Assembly (NCBI GenBank): GCA_017549025.1
Contig: JAFYWB010000055.1
Span: forward strand, 18,943 to 82,942
From: Treponema sp.
GTDB lineage: Bacteria > Spirochaetota > Spirochaetia > Treponematales > Treponemataceae
DNA length: 64,000 nucleotides
Direction of reading: 5' to 3'
Part shown: positions 2,566 to 52,983 of the stretch, piece by piece
Numbering within the stretch: position 1 is the first letter of the stretch
Layout: the number at the start of each line of letters is the position of its first letter
Notes under the pieces: generated by a model
Told to the model about the DNA's origin: nothing
Seen by the model: only the letters and a program-made list of their open reading frames with translations
Database searches by the model: none
Translations under genes and position numbers: made by a program

Positions 2566-5500
2566 TTATGCTTCGGCACTTTCGTCGGGGTGGCGGCCAA
2601 CGGGAGCGTTAGACAGCATGAGCTTCAGGCGGTTCAGCTGGTTTACCTCGCTGGCACCTGGGTCATAGTCAATGGCGGAGATATTTGATTCAGGGAAGCG
2701 GTGACGCAATTCCTTGATCATGCCTTTTCCAGTAACGTGGTTGGGCAAGCAGGCAAAGGGCTGCACACAGGCAATGCTGGGCACGCCAGCGTGAATCAGC
2801 TCCACCATTTCCGCAGTAAGGAACCAGCCCTCACCAGTAATATTTCCCAGCTGCACGATATCGTCCACACCCTTCATCAGGTCGTAGATGGAGGCAGGTG
2901 GGTCAAATCGCTTGCTCTTGCCCAGCACCTTCTTGATGCGGCGACGATACAGCTCCAAGAACCAAATCAGGCGACGGGCATTACGCTCGGTCTTCTTTGG
3001 GAAGGCCAATTCCTCGTGACGGAAAATTCCTGTGGAGAAGGTGTAGAACAAAAAGTCTGCCAAGTCGGGCATAACGCACTCTGCCCCTTCTCGCTCGATA
3101 ACACGGCAAATGTCGTTGTTGGCGGTGGGATGGAACTTTACCAAAATCTCACCAACTACACCAACACGAGGCTTTTTCACATTCAGCAGGGGCAGTGCAT
3201 CGAATTCGTCTACAATGCCTTGAATCAGCTTGTGGTATTTTCGTACCGACAATGATTTAAGCTGCACCTCTGCCCGACCGCTCCACTTTTCATAGAGGGC
3301 ATCTGCGGAACCAGAAGTGGCCTCGTAGGGTCGAGTTCGGTACAGTACCCGCATCAGCACGTCACCAGTCATCAAGGCCATCATGGCACGGTGCAGCAGG
3401 GCGGGAGTAATCTTAAATCCAGGCTGAGATTCCAGTCCAGAAGCGTTTAATGAAAGCACTGGCACCTGTTCCAGTCCAGCGTCCACCAAAGCACGGCGGA
3501 TAAAGCCGATGTAGTTGGTGGCTCGACATCCACCACCCGTCTGGGTAATCAGCAGGCTCACGTGGTCCAGGTCGTACTTTCCAGACTTAAGGGCAGCAAT
3601 CATCTGGCCAGCCACCAAGATGGAAGGATAGCAGGCATCGTTATTGACATACTGCAAGCCTGTTTCCACCGCCATGGTATCTACCTCTGGCAAGATGACA
3701 AAATTGTAGCCGGAATACTCAAAGGCCTTTTGAACCAAGCGGAAGTGAATGGGAGACATCTGGGGAGCGATGATGGTGTGAGTTTTCTTCATCTCCTTGG
3801 TGAAAATCTGTCGCTTGTAGGCTGCAGAAATAGACACAGGCTTTTTCTGCTGGCGGCGTTCCCGCTCCCGAACAGCTGCAATCAAGCTGCGGATACGGAT
3901 TCGCACGGCACCAAGGTTGGAGCCTTCGTCAATCTTAATGAGGGTGTACATTCTGCCGTGGGCTTGGAGGATTTCGTCCACCTGATCTGAGGTAACGGCA
4001 TCAAGACCACAGCCAAAGCTGGTAAGCTGCACCAATTCCAAGCTGGGGAAGCCTGCCACAAAGGAGGCTGCACGATACAGGCGATTGTGGTAGGTCCACT
4101 GGTCCACAATCCGCAGGGGTCGCTCCACGCTTCCCAGGTGGGCAACGGAGTCCTCGGTAAAGACGGCTAGTCCAAGGCCAGACACCATTTCAGGAATACC
4201 GTGGTTGATTTCTGGGTCCAGATGATAAGGACGACCAGACAGTACGATTCCTCGTCCACCCATAATAATCATCTGGGTTAGGGCTTCTTCTCCTGCCAGT
4301 TGGGTGTCACGACGGAATTTCTCCATTTCCTTCCAAGCAGCATCAACAGCCTTTGTGATTTCTTCCTGAGGAATATCGAATTTTTCCTTCAATTCCTCGT
4401 GGAGACGCACGGCTAACCTGTCCTTGTCGTAAATGGGCAGGAAGGGATTCATAAAGGTAATGGAAGGATCACGGCGAAGCACCTCCACGTTGTTGCGAAG
4501 CACCTCAGGATAGCTGGTAACGATGGGACAGTTGTAGTGGTTTCCTGCTCCCTCGTCTTCCTTAATTTCATAAGGAGCACAGGGATAGAAGATAAACTTA
4601 ACTCCCTGCTTCAGCAAGGCTTCCACATGGCCGTGGGCAATCTTTCCCGGATAACACACGGACTCAGAAGGAATGGTTTCCAGTCCCATTTCGTAAACAG
4701 AGCGACTGGAACGGGGAGAAAGGCGAACACGGAAGCCCAGCTCAGTGAAGATGGTAAACCACAGAGGATAATTTTCGTACAGGTTCAAGACACGGGGAAG
4801 CCCCACATCTCCACGGGGAGCATTTTCTGGGCTCAGGGGCTTGTAATAGGAGAAAAGCCGCTTGTATTTCCACTCAAAAAGGTTAGGAAGCTTCTTTTCT
4901 CCATGGTCTGCGCCAGTGGAGGTGTTGTGCTTGTTGCTGGCATCCACAATCTTCAGCTCATCACCTAACTCGGCACCACGCTCGCAGCGGTTTCCCGTGA
5001 GGAAGCGACTTGCTTTGCGGGTGTCTCCTGCTCCAGCGGTAAAGGTGTTGATGGTCATGAGACAGTTGTTGTTACACTTACCGCAGCGACGAAGCTCCAA
5101 GTCTACGTTAAAAGAATCGAGCTGCTCTGGAGTGGCAATGTTGGAGCGAATGGTGGGAGGCACAAAGGTAGCCTCATCTACTCCCACAGGAGGACGAATC
5201 ATATCCTTCCACTGGTCCAGGGCAATGAGGGCGGCACCATAGGCACCCATCAAGCCAGCCACATCGGGACGGAATACGTTTACGCCAGAAATCTTTTCAA
5301 AGGCCCGTAGAACAGCGTCATTGTTAAAGGTTCCACCCTGCACTACAACCTTTGTTCCGATTTCGGAGGCACGACGCAGCTTAATAACCTTGAACAGAGC
5401 ATTTTTGATAACAGAATAGGAAAGACCTGCAGAAATATCTGCAACGGTGGCACCTTCTTTTTGAGCCTGCTTTACACGACTGTTCATGAACACGGTACAG

Positions 5501-7089
5501 CGGCTTCCCAAGTCCACGGGGCGTTCTGCCAACAGGGCCTTACGGCTAAATTCCCGCACGTCCATGCCCAAAGAGCGGGCAAAGTTGTCCAAGAAGCTTC
5601 CGCAGCCAGAAGAACAGGCTTCGTTCAGCTGGATTGAGGTGATGGCTCCATCCTTCATTCTCAGGCACTTCATGTCCTGGCCACCAATGTCCAAAAGGAA
5701 TTCAACCCCAGGCACAAAGAAGTCGGCAGCTCGATAGTGGGTAATGGTTTCTACCTCACCAGAGTCAACACCTAAGGCAGCTTGAAAAAGGGCCTCACCG
5801 TAACCAGTGGAAACAGAGCGGGCAATGTAGGCATCCTTGGGAATCTGGGTATACAAATCTTTCAGCACCCGCACAGCCAAATCCACAGGATTTCCAGCGT
5901 TTACATCGTAGAAACGCCACAAAATACGGCCAGCGGCATCAATAAGCACCGCCTTTGTGGTGGTGGAGCCTGCATCCAATCCTAGGAACACAGGGCCTGA
6001 GGCAGTCTCTAAGTTGGCGGAGGCAGCCATTTCCTCTGCATGGCGACGGTGAAATTCTTCAAGCTCGTGCTCGTTTCGGAACAGAGGCTCCAAACGCTGC
6101 ACCTCGCTCATTTCTGCGTCCACCAGATTTTTCAGGCTTTCACGGAATTCTCCCAGCAAGGGGAAGGGCTGCTGCTTGTCTGCAGACTGAACACAGCTTA
6201 AGCTTCGTTCAGCAGAAAAGGCTGCACCAGCGGCAACAAAAAGCTGGGAATCAGGAGGAGTTACGATTTCCTTTTCCGTAAGCTCCAAGGTGGTAATAAA
6301 GCGATGGCGCAGCTGGTCCAAAAAGTGGAGGGGGCCGCCCAAAAAGGCTACATTTCCACGAATGGGCTTTCCACAGGCCAAGCCGGAAATGGTCTGGCTT
6401 ACCACAGCCTGAAAGATACTGGCGGCAATGTCCTCACGGCGAGCACCTTCATTAATGAGGGGCTGCACGTCAGTTTTGGCAAATACACCACAGCGGGCGG
6501 CGATAGGATAGATGGTGGAAGCCCCCTTGGCCATTTCGTTTAGGCCAGGAGCATCGGTTTCCAGCAGGGCAGCCATCTGGTCAATGAAGGCACCAGTTCC
6601 ACCAGCACAGGAGCCGTTCATGCGCTGCTCCACGCCGCCAGAAAAATAGGTAATCTTTGCATCCTCACCACCCAGCTCGATTACAACGTCGGTGTGGGGA
6701 ATGAGCTTTTGTACCGCAGTGGTGGAAGCTACAACCTCTTGGATAAAGGGGATGTTGAGCCACTGGGACACGGCAAAGCCACCGGAACCAGTTACCTTAA
6801 CACTTAAGGGCTGACGAGCACCTGCAGGAAGCTCCTTTTCCAGCTTGTCCAAGGCTCGCTTTACCACATCCATAATGGTACCACGAATATCTGCCAGGTG
6901 ACGCTTGTATTCGCTGTAGCAAATATTATCATTTTCGTCCAAAGCCACGAACTTTACCGTGGTGGACCCTACGTCGATTCCAACTCGCAATGGTGGAACT
7001 GAAGGCTTGAAGGCAGTTGGCTTGAAGCTTGCAGACTCCAAACCAAAGTTTTTTGCAGAGGTTGTATTGGCAGCAGAGTGCAAATCCAT
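2566..7089 (-). CDS. Giant acyl-CoA dehydratase activase-related fusion protein (two BcrAD/BadFG-type ATPase modules plus dehydratase-like/DUF2229-like C-terminal modules)
   Basis: 1507-aa ORF. Two acetate/sugar-kinase-fold ATPase starts ([14 protein letters not shown] and [14 protein letters not shown]). Cys cluster [13 protein letters not shown]. Long C-terminal region like the activase-associated domains in clostridial/spirochete proteins. AAGGGA RBS upstream of the ATG. Confidence 0.85.
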
Positions 7090-7326: not shown

Positions 7327-7351
7327 CTGATAGATGGGGCTGGATAAAAAA
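7327..7351. repeat. Terminal fragment of the dispersed GGGGAAC-rich repeat family (right-end motif only)
   Basis: TAGATGGGGCTGGATAAAAAA (7331-7351) is identical to 31922-31942. It closely matches 51566-51586. Confidence 0.6.
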
Positions 7352-7355
7352 TTAT

Positions 7356-7440
7356 AAAAAAAATCCAGTTTTTCTGGAAAAAACGCATTTTTTTGCACGT
7401 TCAAACCTATAATCTATATGTAAGAAAAAAATCTTGGAGG
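7356..7440 (+). promoter_or_regulatory. Conserved promoter/5'UTR cassette upstream of Rpn-family gene (copy 1)
   Basis: About 85 bp, roughly 90% identical by eye to 52010-52093: AAAAAATCCAG-TTTTTCTGGAAAAAACGCATTTTTTTGCACGTTCAAACCTATAATCTATATGTAAGAAAAAAATCTTGGAGG. Contains TATAAT at 7408-7413 and a GGAGG RBS. Confidence 0.55.
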
Positions 7441-50209: not shown

Positions 50210-51190
50210 TTATTTTTTCTCCTGATGTTTACAGTAAGCTCCCCAGGTGGATGAAACTAAGGTATCCACATCGGAATGGGTAGCTGACCAGTTCAAGGTT
50301 TCACGAGCGAAGGCAGAGGTAGCATAGAGGCAAGCGGGATCTCCTGCACGGCGACCAACAAAGTCTGCGGGGATTTCCTTGCCAGTAATGCGACGAGCTG
50401 CTTCCAACATCTCTTTAACAGTAACACCTGTCTCACTACCAAGGTTAACCTTAAGGCTTGTTTTTTTAGTAGAAATGTATTCCAGAGCCTTTACGTGGGC
50501 AATAGCCAGGTCTGTAACGTGAACATAGTCTCGGATACAAGTACCATCACGGGTGTCGTAGTCGGTACCGAATACCTGCAGCTTCTGGCGCATTCCGCTG
50601 GCAACCTCCATGATTACAGGCAACAGGTTGGCAGGATTCTGCTCCAATCCACAGGGGAAGCCGTCGGGGTCGTAGCCAGCGGCATTGAAATAGCGAAGTG
50701 CAGCAAACTTCAGTCCCTTCAGCTGGTCGTACCAGTCCATGAACCGCTCAATTTCCAGCTTGGTAAAGCCGTAGTAGTTCTCTGGGTTCTTGGGGTGATC
50801 CTCATTGATGGGAAGATACTGAGGCTCTCCGAAAACGGCGGCAGAGGAAGAGAATACCATGTTGAGGCATCCATGCTTTACTGCTGCATTCATGAGATTG
50901 AGGGTTCCAGTAATGTTGTTGACGGAATATTTTTCTGGGGCTGTCATGGACTCACCAGCTGCCTTGAAGGCTGCCAAGTGAATGAATGCGTCAAAGCCAC
51001 GACTAAAAGCGGCATCGAGATTTTCTGGATGAAGAATATCTCCTGCGATAAAGTCATTTTCTGGGAAGAGGTTCTGCAAAAGTCCAGAAGAAAGGTTATC
51101 AAAAACCGTTACCTTGTGACCAGCCTTCATCAATTCCTTTACTACGTGGCTACCGATATAGCCTGCTCCACCAACAACTAAAACCTTCAT
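50210..51190 (-). CDS. galE: UDP-glucose 4-epimerase
   Basis: VLVVGGAGYIGSH Rossmann motif, YGFTKLE (YxxxK). 326 aa. AAGGAG RBS. Confidence 0.93.
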   Translation of the reverse strand: MKVLVVGGAGYIGSHVVKELMKAGHKVTVFDNLSSGLLQNLFPENDFIAGDILHPENLDAAFSRGFDAFIHLAAFKAAGESMTAPEKYSVNNITGTLNLMNAAVKHGCLNMVFSSSAAVFGEPQYLPINEDHPKNPENYYGFTKLEIERFMDWYDQLKGLKFAALRYFNAAGYDPDGFPCGLEQNPANLLPVIMEVASGMRQKLQVFGTDYDTRDGTCIRDYVHVTDLAIAHVKALEYISTKKTSLKVNLGSETGVTVKEMLEAARRITGKEIPADFVGRRAGDPACLYATSAFARETLNWSATHSDVDTLVSSTWGAYCKHQEKK

Positions 51191-51237
51191 GTCTTACTCC
51201 TTATCTATGGAAAGTAATATTTGTCTTTATAAGAATC

Positions 51238-51266
51238 AGTATACCCCAAGGGAGGGAAAGTAGCAA
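51238..51266 (-). promoter_or_regulatory. Candidate sigma70 promoter of galE
   Basis: On the minus strand: TTGCTA (51266-51261), 17-nt spacer, TATACT (51243-51238). Confidence 0.45.
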
Positions 51267-51270
51267 GTTT

Positions 51271-51588
51271 CTTCACGAACATCATCCCGGGAGGCTGAAT
51301 CCCGAGCCACATCCCGGGAAGCAGGGGAACCAAATTTATCTCGGGAAACAGGGGAATAGGAACATCATCTCTGTGGGCTGGGGAACCCTACCCCGCCTTA
51401 CGCTTCGCAAGCTCAGAGTTCGGCTGGGCAGGGAACTCCCCAGCCCCATGTATAATTTTCGTAGGTTCCCCAGTTTCCCAGAATAATTTTTGTAGAGGGT
51501 TCCCCTGCTCCCCAAGCTATTGCTGGGCGGGGCTTCAAGTTCACGGTCTACTACTCGATAGCTAGTAGATGGGGCTGGATATAAAAAC
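51271..51588. repeat. Dispersed GGGGAAC-rich palindromic repeat element, copy B
   Basis: Termini match copy A. Left: CACGAACATCA.CCC.GGAG.CTGAATCCC.AGCCACATCCCGGGAAGCAGGGGAAC. Right: GGGGCTTCAA.TTCACGGTCTACT..TCGATA.CT.GTAGATGGGGCTGGATA. Internal inverted repeat 51316-51330 / 51499-51513 has 1 mismatch. Confidence 0.8.
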
Positions 51589-51669
51589 TCCCCCGTTACA
51601 GATGGAGCTGAAACGAGGGAGTTTGCCTCCTACACAGGACATTTTCTGGGGAAAATTTATGAATTATGA

Positions 51670-51961
51670 TGCCACACGGATTCGGAAAATCTACGATTTT
51701 CCTAGGCACAGATAAGTTTCTTTTGCTTACAGTGTGTAAGAATTTCCTTTGCTTACACACTGTAAGAGTCCAATCTTACACTGTGTAAGATTGCTTTCTT
51801 ACACAAGGTAAGATTACTATCTTACACATAGTAAGATTCAGCTAATACTACAAGTCCAATTACCCCAGATTTTGCGTAGCAAAATCGAATCTGGCTTTCA
51901 GCCAGTTCTGTAAGGAAGTGATTGGAATAGCGGCTCACGCCGCCTGCGAATCCGTGTGGCA
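51670..51961. repeat. Noncoding module bounded by a perfect 15-nt inverted repeat
   Basis: TGCCACACGGATTCG (51670-51684) and CGAATCCGTGTGGCA (51947-51961). Internal hairpins GGAAAATC-TAC-GATTTTCC (51684-51702) and GATTTTGC-GTA-GCAAAATC (51868-51886). Confidence 0.7.
51726..51836. repeat. Array of five palindromic 16-bp sites (CTTAC-N6-GTAAG) at 23-bp periodicity
   Basis: 51726 CTTACAGTGTGTAAGA; 51752 CTTACACACTGTAAGA; 51775 CTTACACTGTGTAAGA; 51798 CTTACACAAGGTAAGA; 51821 CTTACACATAGTAAGA. Confidence 0.8.
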
Positions 51962-52009
51962 ATCTCCCCATAGCACATTCCTCAAGGCCAGCCCATGGAA
52001 AACTTTCAC

Positions 52010-52093
52010 AAAAAATCCATTTTTTTCTGGAAAAACGCATTTTTTTTCACCTTCAAACCTATAATCTATATGTAAAGAAAAAAAACTTGGAGG
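52010..52093 (+). promoter_or_regulatory. Conserved promoter/5'UTR cassette upstream of Rpn-family gene (copy 2)
   Basis: Near-identical to 7356-7440. TATAAT at 52060-52065. GGAGG RBS. Confidence 0.55.
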
Positions 52094-52983
52094 TAAGATT
52101 GCTAACAGAAGCAGAATTACAGAAAAAGTGGGAAAGTTTGACTTTTACCGATAACTTTATCTTTTCTCGTGTCATGCACGATGAACACATTTGTCGTCAG
52201 GTGGTGGAGTTGATTCTTGGAGTACGGATTGGAAAGATACGTTATCTTTCAGCCCAAGATGAACATAAAACCGACCCAGATTCCATGCGAATCATCATGG
52301 ATGTATTCTTACGAGATGAAAATCGCATTATTAACGTAGAAGTTCAAACTGGTCACAAAAAGGAACTACCTAAACGAAGCCGTTACTATCAAAGCGTGGC
52401 AGATGTGTCCACAACTTCAACAGGAACCAAGTATCGAGATCTACCAGAAAACATCCTCATATTCATCTGTACATTCGATCCATTCGACAGAGATTTTCCC
52501 CGTTACACATTTGAATATACCTGCAAAGAAGCCCAGCACCAGCTCAAACTAAAGGACGGCTCACTCCGCATTTTTTTGAACACTAAGGCCACAAAGCTTT
52601 CAACCCTTGACCAGAAGTTACAAGCATTTTATCATTATTTACAGAAGGGTATTGCTGAATCTGGTTTAACACAAGAAATTTTCAACAAAATCACCACCCT
52701 AAAAAATAATTCCATTGAAAGGAGACATTACATGACACTGGCACTAAAAATGGCTGATATAGAATACGATGCATATGAAAATGGTTTCGAGAGAGGCCAT
52801 GAAGCTGGACTCCAAGCTGGCCTCCAACAAGGAATTGAACAAGGGATTGAACAAGGTCTTGAACAAGGAGCCTACCAAACCAAGCTAGAAACAGCAAAAA
52901 ATCTGCTTTCCATGAACTTCACTCCAACGCAAGTAGCCCAAGGCACCAATCTCCCACTGGACGTGGTACAGAATTTACTGTAA
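52087..52983 (+). CDS. PD-(D/E)XK nuclease family transposase-like protein (Rpn-type paralog)
   Basis: DNFIFSRVM..., IMDVFLRDENRIINVEVQTGHKKELPKRSRYYQS (D...E.Q core). Tail GLEQGAYQTKLETAKNLLS...TNLPLDVV. No ATG near the RBS, so the start is probably TTG 52099 (or TTG 52087 as in the track). Confidence 0.75.
   Translation: MEVRLLTEAELQKKWESLTFTDNFIFSRVMHDEHICRQVVELILGVRIGKIRYLSAQDEHKTDPDSMRIIMDVFLRDENRIINVEVQTGHKKELPKRSRYYQSVADVSTTSTGTKYRDLPENILIFICTFDPFDRDFPRYTFEYTCKEAQHQLKLKDGSLRIFLNTKATKLSTLDQKLQAFYHYLQKGIAESGLTQEIFNKITTLKNNSIERRHYMTLALKMADIEYDAYENGFERGHEAGLQAGLQQGIEQGIEQGLEQGAYQTKLETAKNLLSMNFTPTQVAQGTNLPLDVVQNLL

Follow-up and report, generated by a model that had tools for sequence, protein, structure and literature searches.

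The 292-bp module at positions 51670-51961 of the 64,000-nucleotide Treponema sp. stretch analyzed here (the window, contig C39 of a 2.48-Mb genome in 74 contigs) is one copy of a short, non-autonomous, and hairpin-rich repeat family of gut and rumen Treponema, which forms mosaics like those of the BIME, REPIN, and Correia elements. Its building block, a conserved head joined to a hairpin, would be recognized and copied or recombined in trans, a reading to which we give a probability of roughly 0.55. Of the hallmarks of a MITE, the module has no target duplication, and no cognate transposase was found in this genome and about 180 scanned loci.

The module lies in a gap of 897 bp that separates a NAD-epimerase gene (50210-51190, minus strand) from a divergently transcribed Rpn-like PD-(D/E)XK gene (52087-52983, plus strand; PF12784, PDDEXK_2). 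Including this gene, the genome has about 27-40 paralogs or fragments of Rpn, many of them at contig ends. Throughout its length, the gap is pieced together from segments that recur at other places in the genome. It includes a GGGGAAC-type element (about 51271-51590) and, upstream of and outside the module, a hairpin with 17-bp arms (51585-51624) that is followed by a T-run on the minus strand and repeated in contigs C71, C16, C8, and C67. A 26-nt leader (TTCTGGGGAAAATTTATGAATTATGA, 51644-51669, plus strand) lies outside the left arm and is common to the four module copies of the genome. Downstream of the module, a promoter and RBS cassette (TATAAT, GGAGG; 52010-52086, plus strand) recurs at about 20 paralogous Rpn loci, one of its copies being at 7347-7434.

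Within the module, the left head TGCCACACGGATTCG (51670-51684, plus strand) and its exact reverse complement, the right head (51947-51961, minus strand), are complementary over 15 of 15 nucleotides (100%), being 262 nt apart. The left hairpin, GGAAAATC-TAC-GATTTTCC, occupies 51684-51702 and the right hairpin, GATTTTGC-GTA-GCAAAATC, occupies 51868-51886, both given on the plus strand. Five dyad sites (CTTAC-N5-GTAAG, in full CTTACA-N3-TGTAAG) form an array at 51726-51835 with spacings of 26, 23, 23, and 23 bp, 0.19 such sites being expected in shuffled sequence. An optional 55-nt block (51892-51946, plus strand) with two hairpins (51891-51905 and 51930-51943) is bracketed by direct CGAATC repeats at 51886-51891 and 51947-51952. 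The perfect inverted repeat, both hairpins, and the internal sites had been proposed in an earlier sequence-only reading, and all of them are present at the positions it gave. Its view that the module has no coding capacity also stands: two small minus-strand ORFs of 54 and 72 amino acids have no Pfam match, and the C71 copy differs in length by 61 nt, which would disrupt the 72-codon frame.

It is unlikely that the inverted repeat, the hairpins, and the palindromic sites came together by chance, in agreement with what had been argued for the inverted repeat. In the 64-kb window, perfect 15-nt inverted repeats with arms 20-300 nt apart are found at four position pairs, of which three overlap and belong to a single further repeat element around 31.7 kb. 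When the window was resampled with a first-order Markov model, only 6 of 200 sequences had any 15-nt inverted repeat within 300 nt. These few resamples are what can be said for a fortuitous repeat in an AT-rich intergenic region. However, many loci in many genomes have the same heads and hairpins in the same layout, and these paralogous and orthologous copies already refute that explanation, which deserves practically no credence.

Across the copies, what is actually repeated is a block of about 33 nt, in which a 15-nt head (TGYCACA-N4-TTCG) precedes a 7-8-bp hairpin whose loop is TAC. Placed in inverted orientation, two of these blocks generate the 15-nt inverted repeat of the module. In the heads, TGYCACA (invariant core, TGCCACA) and TTCG surround four variable bases, the main variants being CGGA and GGTC. 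The left and right variants are found in all four combinations across modules, being CGGA/CGGA in the window, GGTC/GGTC in genome G015, and mixed at loci L081, L050, L111, and L060. Because mixed heads occur elsewhere, the perfect inverted repeat of the window reflects two units of the same variant and not a conserved requirement for pairing of the ends. In the hairpin, the sequence of the stem is free and the loop C-TAC-G (C-GTA-G on the other strand, a GNA-type triloop) is fixed or nearly so, with TAC in 58 of 73 units. Triloops of the GNA type give very stable DNA mini-hairpins. Among the 73 units, at least 10 different stems are present and all of them pair, for example GAAAATC, GAAAACC, GAATTAC, GAAACAGC, GAAATTCC, GAAATGTC, and GATTTTGC. 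Pairing of the stem is kept through compensatory changes, although template-switch correction can also produce such changes in short palindromes, with no selection involved.

The units number about 16 per genome, and the module has 15 matches in its own genome. Four modules with this layout are present, all upstream of Rpn (PDDEXK_2) paralogs, with the same order of parts and different content. For example, the C71 copy has two sites and is devoid of the 55-nt block, the C67 copy has one site, and the C57 copy, whose site is degenerate, adjoins the middle of an Rpn gene. Moreover, C72 carries a fragment with the right part of the module only, C41 carries the site array alone, among three other tandem site arrays, and the left 33 nt (head and hairpin) are found solo in C34, C9, and C40, as is a right-type unit in C5. 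In C9, the unit lies inside a gene and faces inverted units 1.4 and 1.9 kb downstream. The homology of the module with the C67 and C57 copies starts at 51644, 26 nt outside the left arm, and that with the C71 copy starts at 51529; between the module copies of this genome, it continues through the promoter cassette into the Rpn gene. Because this homology extends past the inverted repeat, the copies would have spread as part of a larger duplicated segment. Duplication or recombination of the leader, module, promoter cassette, and Rpn gene together would be the source of the four copies, rather than a recent transposition of the piece bounded by the inverted repeat. Also, the homology breakpoints among paralogous loci often coincide with unit edges (51670, 51702, 51866, 51891, and 51947). 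The arrangement at 7351-7356, which had been suggested as an empty site, corresponds to a locus without 51589-52009, not without 51670-51961, and hence is not a precise one.

Taken as a whole, the module is a mosaic of blocks, each of which also occurs on its own. The unit, the array, and the 55-nt block are each found alone and in differing combinations, the 55-nt block being present in many solo right units, and the length of the modules varies through these blocks only. Modules have between 0 and 7 sites, and free-standing arrays up to 8. Arrays of 4-8 sites are located 70-100 bp upstream of a conserved XRE + HU/DUF4469 operon in three species, with no units nearby.

Many Treponema genomes contain modules that share the layout of the one in the window, have 0-7 sites, and measure 63 to about 300 nt. 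From the fetched loci, 27 candidate modules bounded by heads were extracted, their lengths being 63 to about 670 nt; in about 16 of the 27, at least 11 of 14 head positions are complementary, and 13 of these have a clear left hairpin. The better-matched modules follow a common order of head, left hairpin, spacer or array, right hairpin, optional 55-nt block, and head, and the minimal one is 63 nt long and has no left hairpin. In the relatives, the sub-blocks match separately and within the genus only, in 9 of 41 genomes including that of the window, whereas seven genomes of the genus are free of units. Of the 16 genomes in the genus search, 8 have arrays, the genome of the window being counted here too. 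Across these 16 genomes, the load of units and arrays does not track the copy number of Rpn genes. For example, the closest relative (G009, whose epimerase is 100% identical at the amino acid level) has 13 Rpn genes and no unit or array, and G011 has one Rpn gene and many units. This mismatch, together with the absence of Rpn genes from the 4 kb around most unit loci, led us to discard both the Rpn gene as mobilizer and the units as mere Rpn upstream sequence. Such patchiness among close relatives is what a selfish repeat that is gained and lost would show. A phage origin was also discarded, viral contigs having no exact match to the unit or the array. A published census describes Spirochaetes, Treponema included, as rich in predicted MITEs (PMC11602168).

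The units are found at unrelated loci, in or beside type IIG/IIL and type I restriction-modification (R-M) genes, type-I-TA-like loci, and Rpn genes. In two intact R-M ORFs, a 1031-aa Eco57I-like gene (C9) and a 966-aa MmeI-like gene (C34), the 33-nt unit is part of the reading frame and contributes 11 codons, CH(T/R)(D/S)SENLRFS. MmeI-like genes of three other genomes (G012, G003, and G014) have a unit at the same codon, at the junction between the methylase and the TRD, and other paralogs have none. A comparison of the in-frame units of the MmeI-like genes of these four species reveals three compensatory pairs (GAAAATC/GATTTTC versus GAATTGC/GCAATTC), the flanking DNA being about 30% diverged. 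These pairs are the best evidence for a maintained hairpin, template-switch correction being a possible alternative. The unit was also considered as the crossover point of TRD swaps, given that the N-terminal parts of MmeI-like genes are 87-91% identical and the C-terminal parts 54-56%. This was rejected: the break falls about 340 nt upstream of the unit, and in a unit-less MmeI-like pair it falls exactly at the junction.

Beyond the genus, the 20-mer AGATTTTGCGTAGCAAAATC (51867-51886), which covers the right hairpin, has exact copies in more than 117 loci of species-representative genomes across phyla, about one locus being expected by chance as estimated from the size of the collection. In Treponema and other spirochaetes, it is followed by GAATCCGTGTGGCA. 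In several Helicobacter and Campylobacter genomes, it is present in many copies and embedded as GTCATTGCG-hairpin-GTGGCAATC, one Clostridium MAG has more than 15 copies with other flanks, and single copies are found in CPR bacteria, a cyanobacterium, and an archaeon. These observations raise the possibility that the 33-nt unit is recognized, in more than one phylum, by a structure-specific enzyme of DNA (or RNA). This proposal is based on the multicopy presence of an identical 20-nt hairpin in Helicobacter/Campylobacter, the Clostridium MAG, and CPR bacteria, on the Treponema units that mark junctions of defense and selfish cassettes (R-M, type-I-TA-like, and Rpn), and on a hairpin that, as the proposal has it, is kept by selection even within coding sequence. 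We consider it decidedly unlikely and retain it mainly because of the sharing of the exact 20-mer across phyla. If true, it would represent a new system of trans-mobilized hairpin elements or cassette junctions, neither RAYT/REP nor integron-like.

The MITE-like character proposed in the sequence-only reading stands in part. The module is non-coding and multicopy, with terminal inverted repeats and internal sites; on the other hand, no target-site duplication, no transposase, and no homology ending at the inverted repeat accompany it. None of the 27 candidate modules has a flanking direct repeat. There is no orthologous empty site beside the epimerase gene either, the neighbor being different in every species; the position next to this gene is a rearrangement hotspot. 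The genome has no RAYT, its only Y1/HUH gene being a single-copy IS200-type tnpA (PF01797; C3:42052-42408) whose own hairpins are unrelated to the units. It also has no small GIY-YIG gene, the only GIY-YIG match lying within an 811-aa open frame that we take to be UvrC, and no serine recombinase of the resolvase family. Three tyrosine recombinases are present, all on other contigs and far from any unit. Apart from hsdM (5 loci) and an ABC-F gene (4 loci) in Treponema, no gene recurs beside the units in 29 Treponema loci, and nothing recurs in 31 Helicobacter-type and 27 Clostridium-type loci. Between inverted head pairs 0.45-7 kb apart, in this genome and about 180 scanned loci, only R-M, Rpn, and FGE-sulfatase genes are found and no known transposase family. 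The idea of a non-autonomous mobile element has no direct sign of transposition behind it, with neither a target-site duplication nor an associated transposase, RAYT, or invertase.

In one alternative explanation, the module would be a structured RNA with several hairpins, a leader or independent ncRNA closed by a helix between the heads, whose role would be to regulate Rpn or to sequester a protein that binds RNA. Compared with shuffled sequences, the two strands have much more stable folds (z = -11.8 and -10.5), the hairpin stems co-vary, and a TATAAT-type promoter-like sequence can be seen by eye about 60 nt upstream of the left head in the C67 and C57 copies. Metatranscriptome contigs of related Treponema also contain 33-nt units (at the contig level, with DNA carry-over possible), and one metatranscriptome contig, subject to the same carry-over, covers 51891-52082 contiguous with an Rpn coding sequence. 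However, both strands fold equally, as DNA palindromes would, the units are found in both orientations relative to genes, and several modules have non-complementary head variants (10-11 of 14 positions paired), so that the closing helix is not conserved. Rfam gives no match for the whole window at gathering thresholds, only noise for 51000-52300 at E <= 10, and no match for five related loci. Single stem mismatches have no G-U strand bias, being 3 versus 2, an uninformative count made by inspection. Moreover, no plus-strand promoter is predicted upstream of the module, and the conserved Rpn promoter cassette lies downstream of it. The location of this cassette, common to about 20 paralogous loci, also makes it unlikely that the region is a plain 5'UTR of a long transcript, the alternative that had been set against a mobile element. 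Transcription of the module is possible, an RNA function is not supported, and the evidence leans toward a DNA-level element; we regard the structured RNA as unlikely. The same perfect inverted repeat, bounding a short segment upstream of a gene, could instead belong to an inverton or recombination cassette, in which a recombinase flips or exchanges the 262-bp interior to give phase variation of Rpn and also shuffles R-M and TA cassettes. In favor of this, the invariant TGCCACA core could serve as crossover region, the units are located at domain or gene junctions of R-M systems, paralogous breakpoints often fall at unit edges, and the in-gene unit of C9 lies opposite the two inverted units downstream. 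Nonetheless, in four metagenomes that contain this species, both heads are spanned by contigs in the reference orientation and no strand-switch joint is seen, which is weak evidence because contigs drop rare variants; these contigs show only skips between sites that match the shorter paralogous copies. No sigma-70-like promoter is predicted inside the module, the genome has no serine recombinase and no tyrosine recombinase near units, and the MmeI-like genes described above break about 340 nt away from the unit when they have one and exactly at the junction in the pair that has none. We regard an inverton as very unlikely.

A further explanation takes the dyad array as the functional core, an operator, silencer, or iteron- or centromere-like element to which a dimeric DNA-binding protein would bind cooperatively, the flanking units being incidental. 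The excess of sites over the shuffled expectation and their regular 23-bp period agree with this, as does the location of the array upstream of the Rpn core promoter. The unit-free arrays that precede the XRE + HU/DUF4469 DNA-binding operon in three species and the C41 array among other tandem site arrays point in the same direction. However, this explanation leaves the inverted repeat, the unit family, and the 55-nt block unaccounted for, some modules have no sites at all, and most Rpn paralogs have no array. Also, the candidate XRE gene has no close homolog in the assembly, and the HU/DUF4469 gene is cut by the end of a contig. As the whole explanation of the module, a protein-binding cassette is improbable. 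In the case of an iteron origin or a partition site, the array is present but has no rep or par neighbor, being surrounded by the epimerase, Rpn, and patatin-like genes in a chromosomal context. A P-loop gene at 55350-56483 matches CbiA/ParA NTPase families (PF01656, CbiA, being the strongest, and also PF10609, of the NUBPL iron-transfer type), and we do not read it as a partition gene. An array of the type III toxin-antitoxin kind upstream of a toxin was likewise rejected, because the arrays are also found away from Rpn genes and their sites are dyads.

Returning to the repeat family, an enzyme acting in trans would recognize the units in hairpin form, on single-stranded or extruded DNA or, with less likelihood, on RNA, and would copy or recombine them. 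At the Rpn locus, the likely effect would be that a putative protein-binding array, together with a strong tendency to form cruciforms or hairpins, comes to lie about 50-110 bp upstream of the core promoter. In design, the closest parallels are the Correia elements, discussed below, and the BIME, REP, and REPIN sequences of Enterobacteria and Pseudomonas, which are associated with RAYT. As in the module, the BIME, REP, and REPIN sequences have a palindromic unit of about 33 nt with a conserved head beside a hairpin, and the units stand singly or as inverted doublets, combined with short motifs into variable mosaics. They are also intergenic or intercistronic and have no target-site duplication. 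In contrast, the Treponema units have no RAYT, number about 16 rather than hundreds per genome, have a head of 15 nt instead of the GTAG tetranucleotide of REP, and in some cases lie in frame inside ORFs, whereas BIME, REP, and REPIN sequences are strictly extragenic.

The Correia elements (CREE/NEMIS), a MITE of Neisseria, are similar in being non-coding and bounded by an inverted repeat over about 100-160 bp, in having short and long forms that differ by an internal block, and in being located often just upstream of genes, whose expression they alter. Their alpha and beta ends are two variants that occur in all four combinations, as do the Treponema heads. However, Correia elements have a TA target duplication and 26-bp terminal inverted repeats with no adjoining hairpin, whereas no duplication is seen in the Treponema modules, whose ends consist of head and hairpin and whose interior carries a variable site array. 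The presence of units within ORFs resembles the Rickettsia palindromic elements (RPE), palindromic repeats located in frame in coding genes and tolerated as an extra peptide, although RPE are inserted as whole elements of about 100-150 bp and the Treponema ORFs hold the 33-nt unit (11 codons) only. The invertons of gut bacteria share with the module a short segment bounded by a perfect inverted repeat upstream of a gene; unlike them, the module has no nearby invertase, no predicted internal promoter, and no second orientation in the contigs of the four metagenomes.

Repeats of this short, interspersed kind influence promoter regions, cause assemblies to break, and promote rearrangement, and those described here front a large Rpn nuclease family and sit in or beside R-M genes, which are phage-defense loci. 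Three traits of the family are uncommon, namely an end made of head and hairpin in which compensatory changes accompany the evolution of the stem, also inside an ORF, a modular interior able to carry a putative protein-binding array, and a hairpin that is word-for-word common to the repeat families of unrelated gut bacteria. Identification of the enzyme that recognizes the unit would add a mechanism of mobilization or recombination to the known set. The family is also represented in a cultured organism, Treponema bryantii NK4A124, which carries, at 5470-5575 of locus L067, a 106-nt module with perfect 15-nt heads and makes this repeat family testable.

Two intact type IIG/IIL restriction-modification genes of the window's genome (G000) carry the 33-nt unit in frame, where it reads as 11 codons, at contig C34:15751-15783 (locus L036) and C9:22050-22082 (locus L033); orthologues are found at L037, L038 and L042. 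A comparison of MmeI-like genes of four species places the unit at the methylase/TRD junction in each case, with three compensatory base-pair changes preserving its hairpin. As a separate observation, strong domain mosaicism is seen among the MmeI-like genes of the genus (L036-L047), whose N-terminal parts reach up to 98% identity, whereas the C-terminal (TRD) parts share about 55-60%. For the L041/L047 pair, the break lies exactly at the ...CVIIGF junction.

Units also occur between genes. For example, a type I hsdM gene and the gene after it are separated by a short spacer that holds a unit (L138:513-546), 10-20 nt upstream of the ribosome-binding site of the second gene, and four further loci are similar (L083, L060, L091 and L126). 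Moreover, Treponema sp. UBA1233 contains a four-unit cluster (L073:758-5025) in which successive intergenic gaps are occupied by units, a PDDEXK_2 gene being bracketed by units in direct orientation and an FGE-sulfatase-domain gene by units in inverted orientation.

Around the 292-bp module of the window, a hairpin with 17-bp arms (51585-51624) is followed by a T-run on the minus strand. This resembles a terminator acting on the minus strand, although no gene that it could serve is evident, and it is also found repeated at C71, C16, C8 and C67. A promoter and ribosome-binding-site cassette of about 77-88 nt (52010-52086 and 7347-7434) is common to about 20 paralogous Rpn loci with 80-96% identity, the coding sequences of these loci being far more diverged than the cassette. 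On the other side of the module, the DNA at the 5' end of the epimerase gene (about 51190-51600; L177-L180) is a rearrangement hotspot. The gene adjoining this end differs in each of four close relatives, all four of which keep GGGGAAC-type repeat remnants there, and in G012 an Rpn C-terminal remnant is also present.

In the Treponema genomes G014 (L053:3020-3140), G012 (L055) and G003 (L048:3085-3260), a conserved XRE-HTH gene, accompanied by a gene for an HU/DUF4469 DNA-binding protein, is preceded at a distance of 70-100 bp by an array of four to eight CTTACAC-N3-GTAAG sites. The two proteins are candidate array binders. The promoter of the XRE gene bears a separate dyad, TGATAAT-N14-ATTATCA, and the orthologous locus of G000 is truncated at the end of contig C31. 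Also, a single intergenic region of G000 (C41:33800-34470; L007/L012), with a helicase-like gene on one side and a NERD/zinc-finger-like gene on the other, holds four distinct tandem site arrays. These consist of TCTCACTGAGA dyads, CATTCTCCTGATAGCCTA repeats of 22 nt, six repeats of 46 nt and the CTTACAC sites.

Other multi-copy loci of G000 resemble, by their predicted layout, type I toxin-antitoxin systems. They include two tandem copies at C9:23500-24480 (L188), one at C34:20450-20640 (L189) and further copies on C5, C40, C71, C73 and C74. In these loci, the promoter TTGACGG-N17-TATAGT is predicted to drive an RNA of about 90 nt, with a conserved CTCATTTGGTCGTCTCCAC and a terminator, which converges on a short hydrophobic ORF (about 29 aa). 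A search against Rfam gave zero matches for these loci. Of the eight good copies, about five have a right-type unit or its remnant ahead of them.

Finally, unrelated phyla carry multiple exact copies of the module's 20-nt hairpin within other repeat families (L062-L137, from Helicobacter, Campylobacter, a Clostridium MAG and others), and no recurrent neighbor gene is found across these loci. The Helicobacter context is GTCATTGCG-hairpin-GTGGCAATC.
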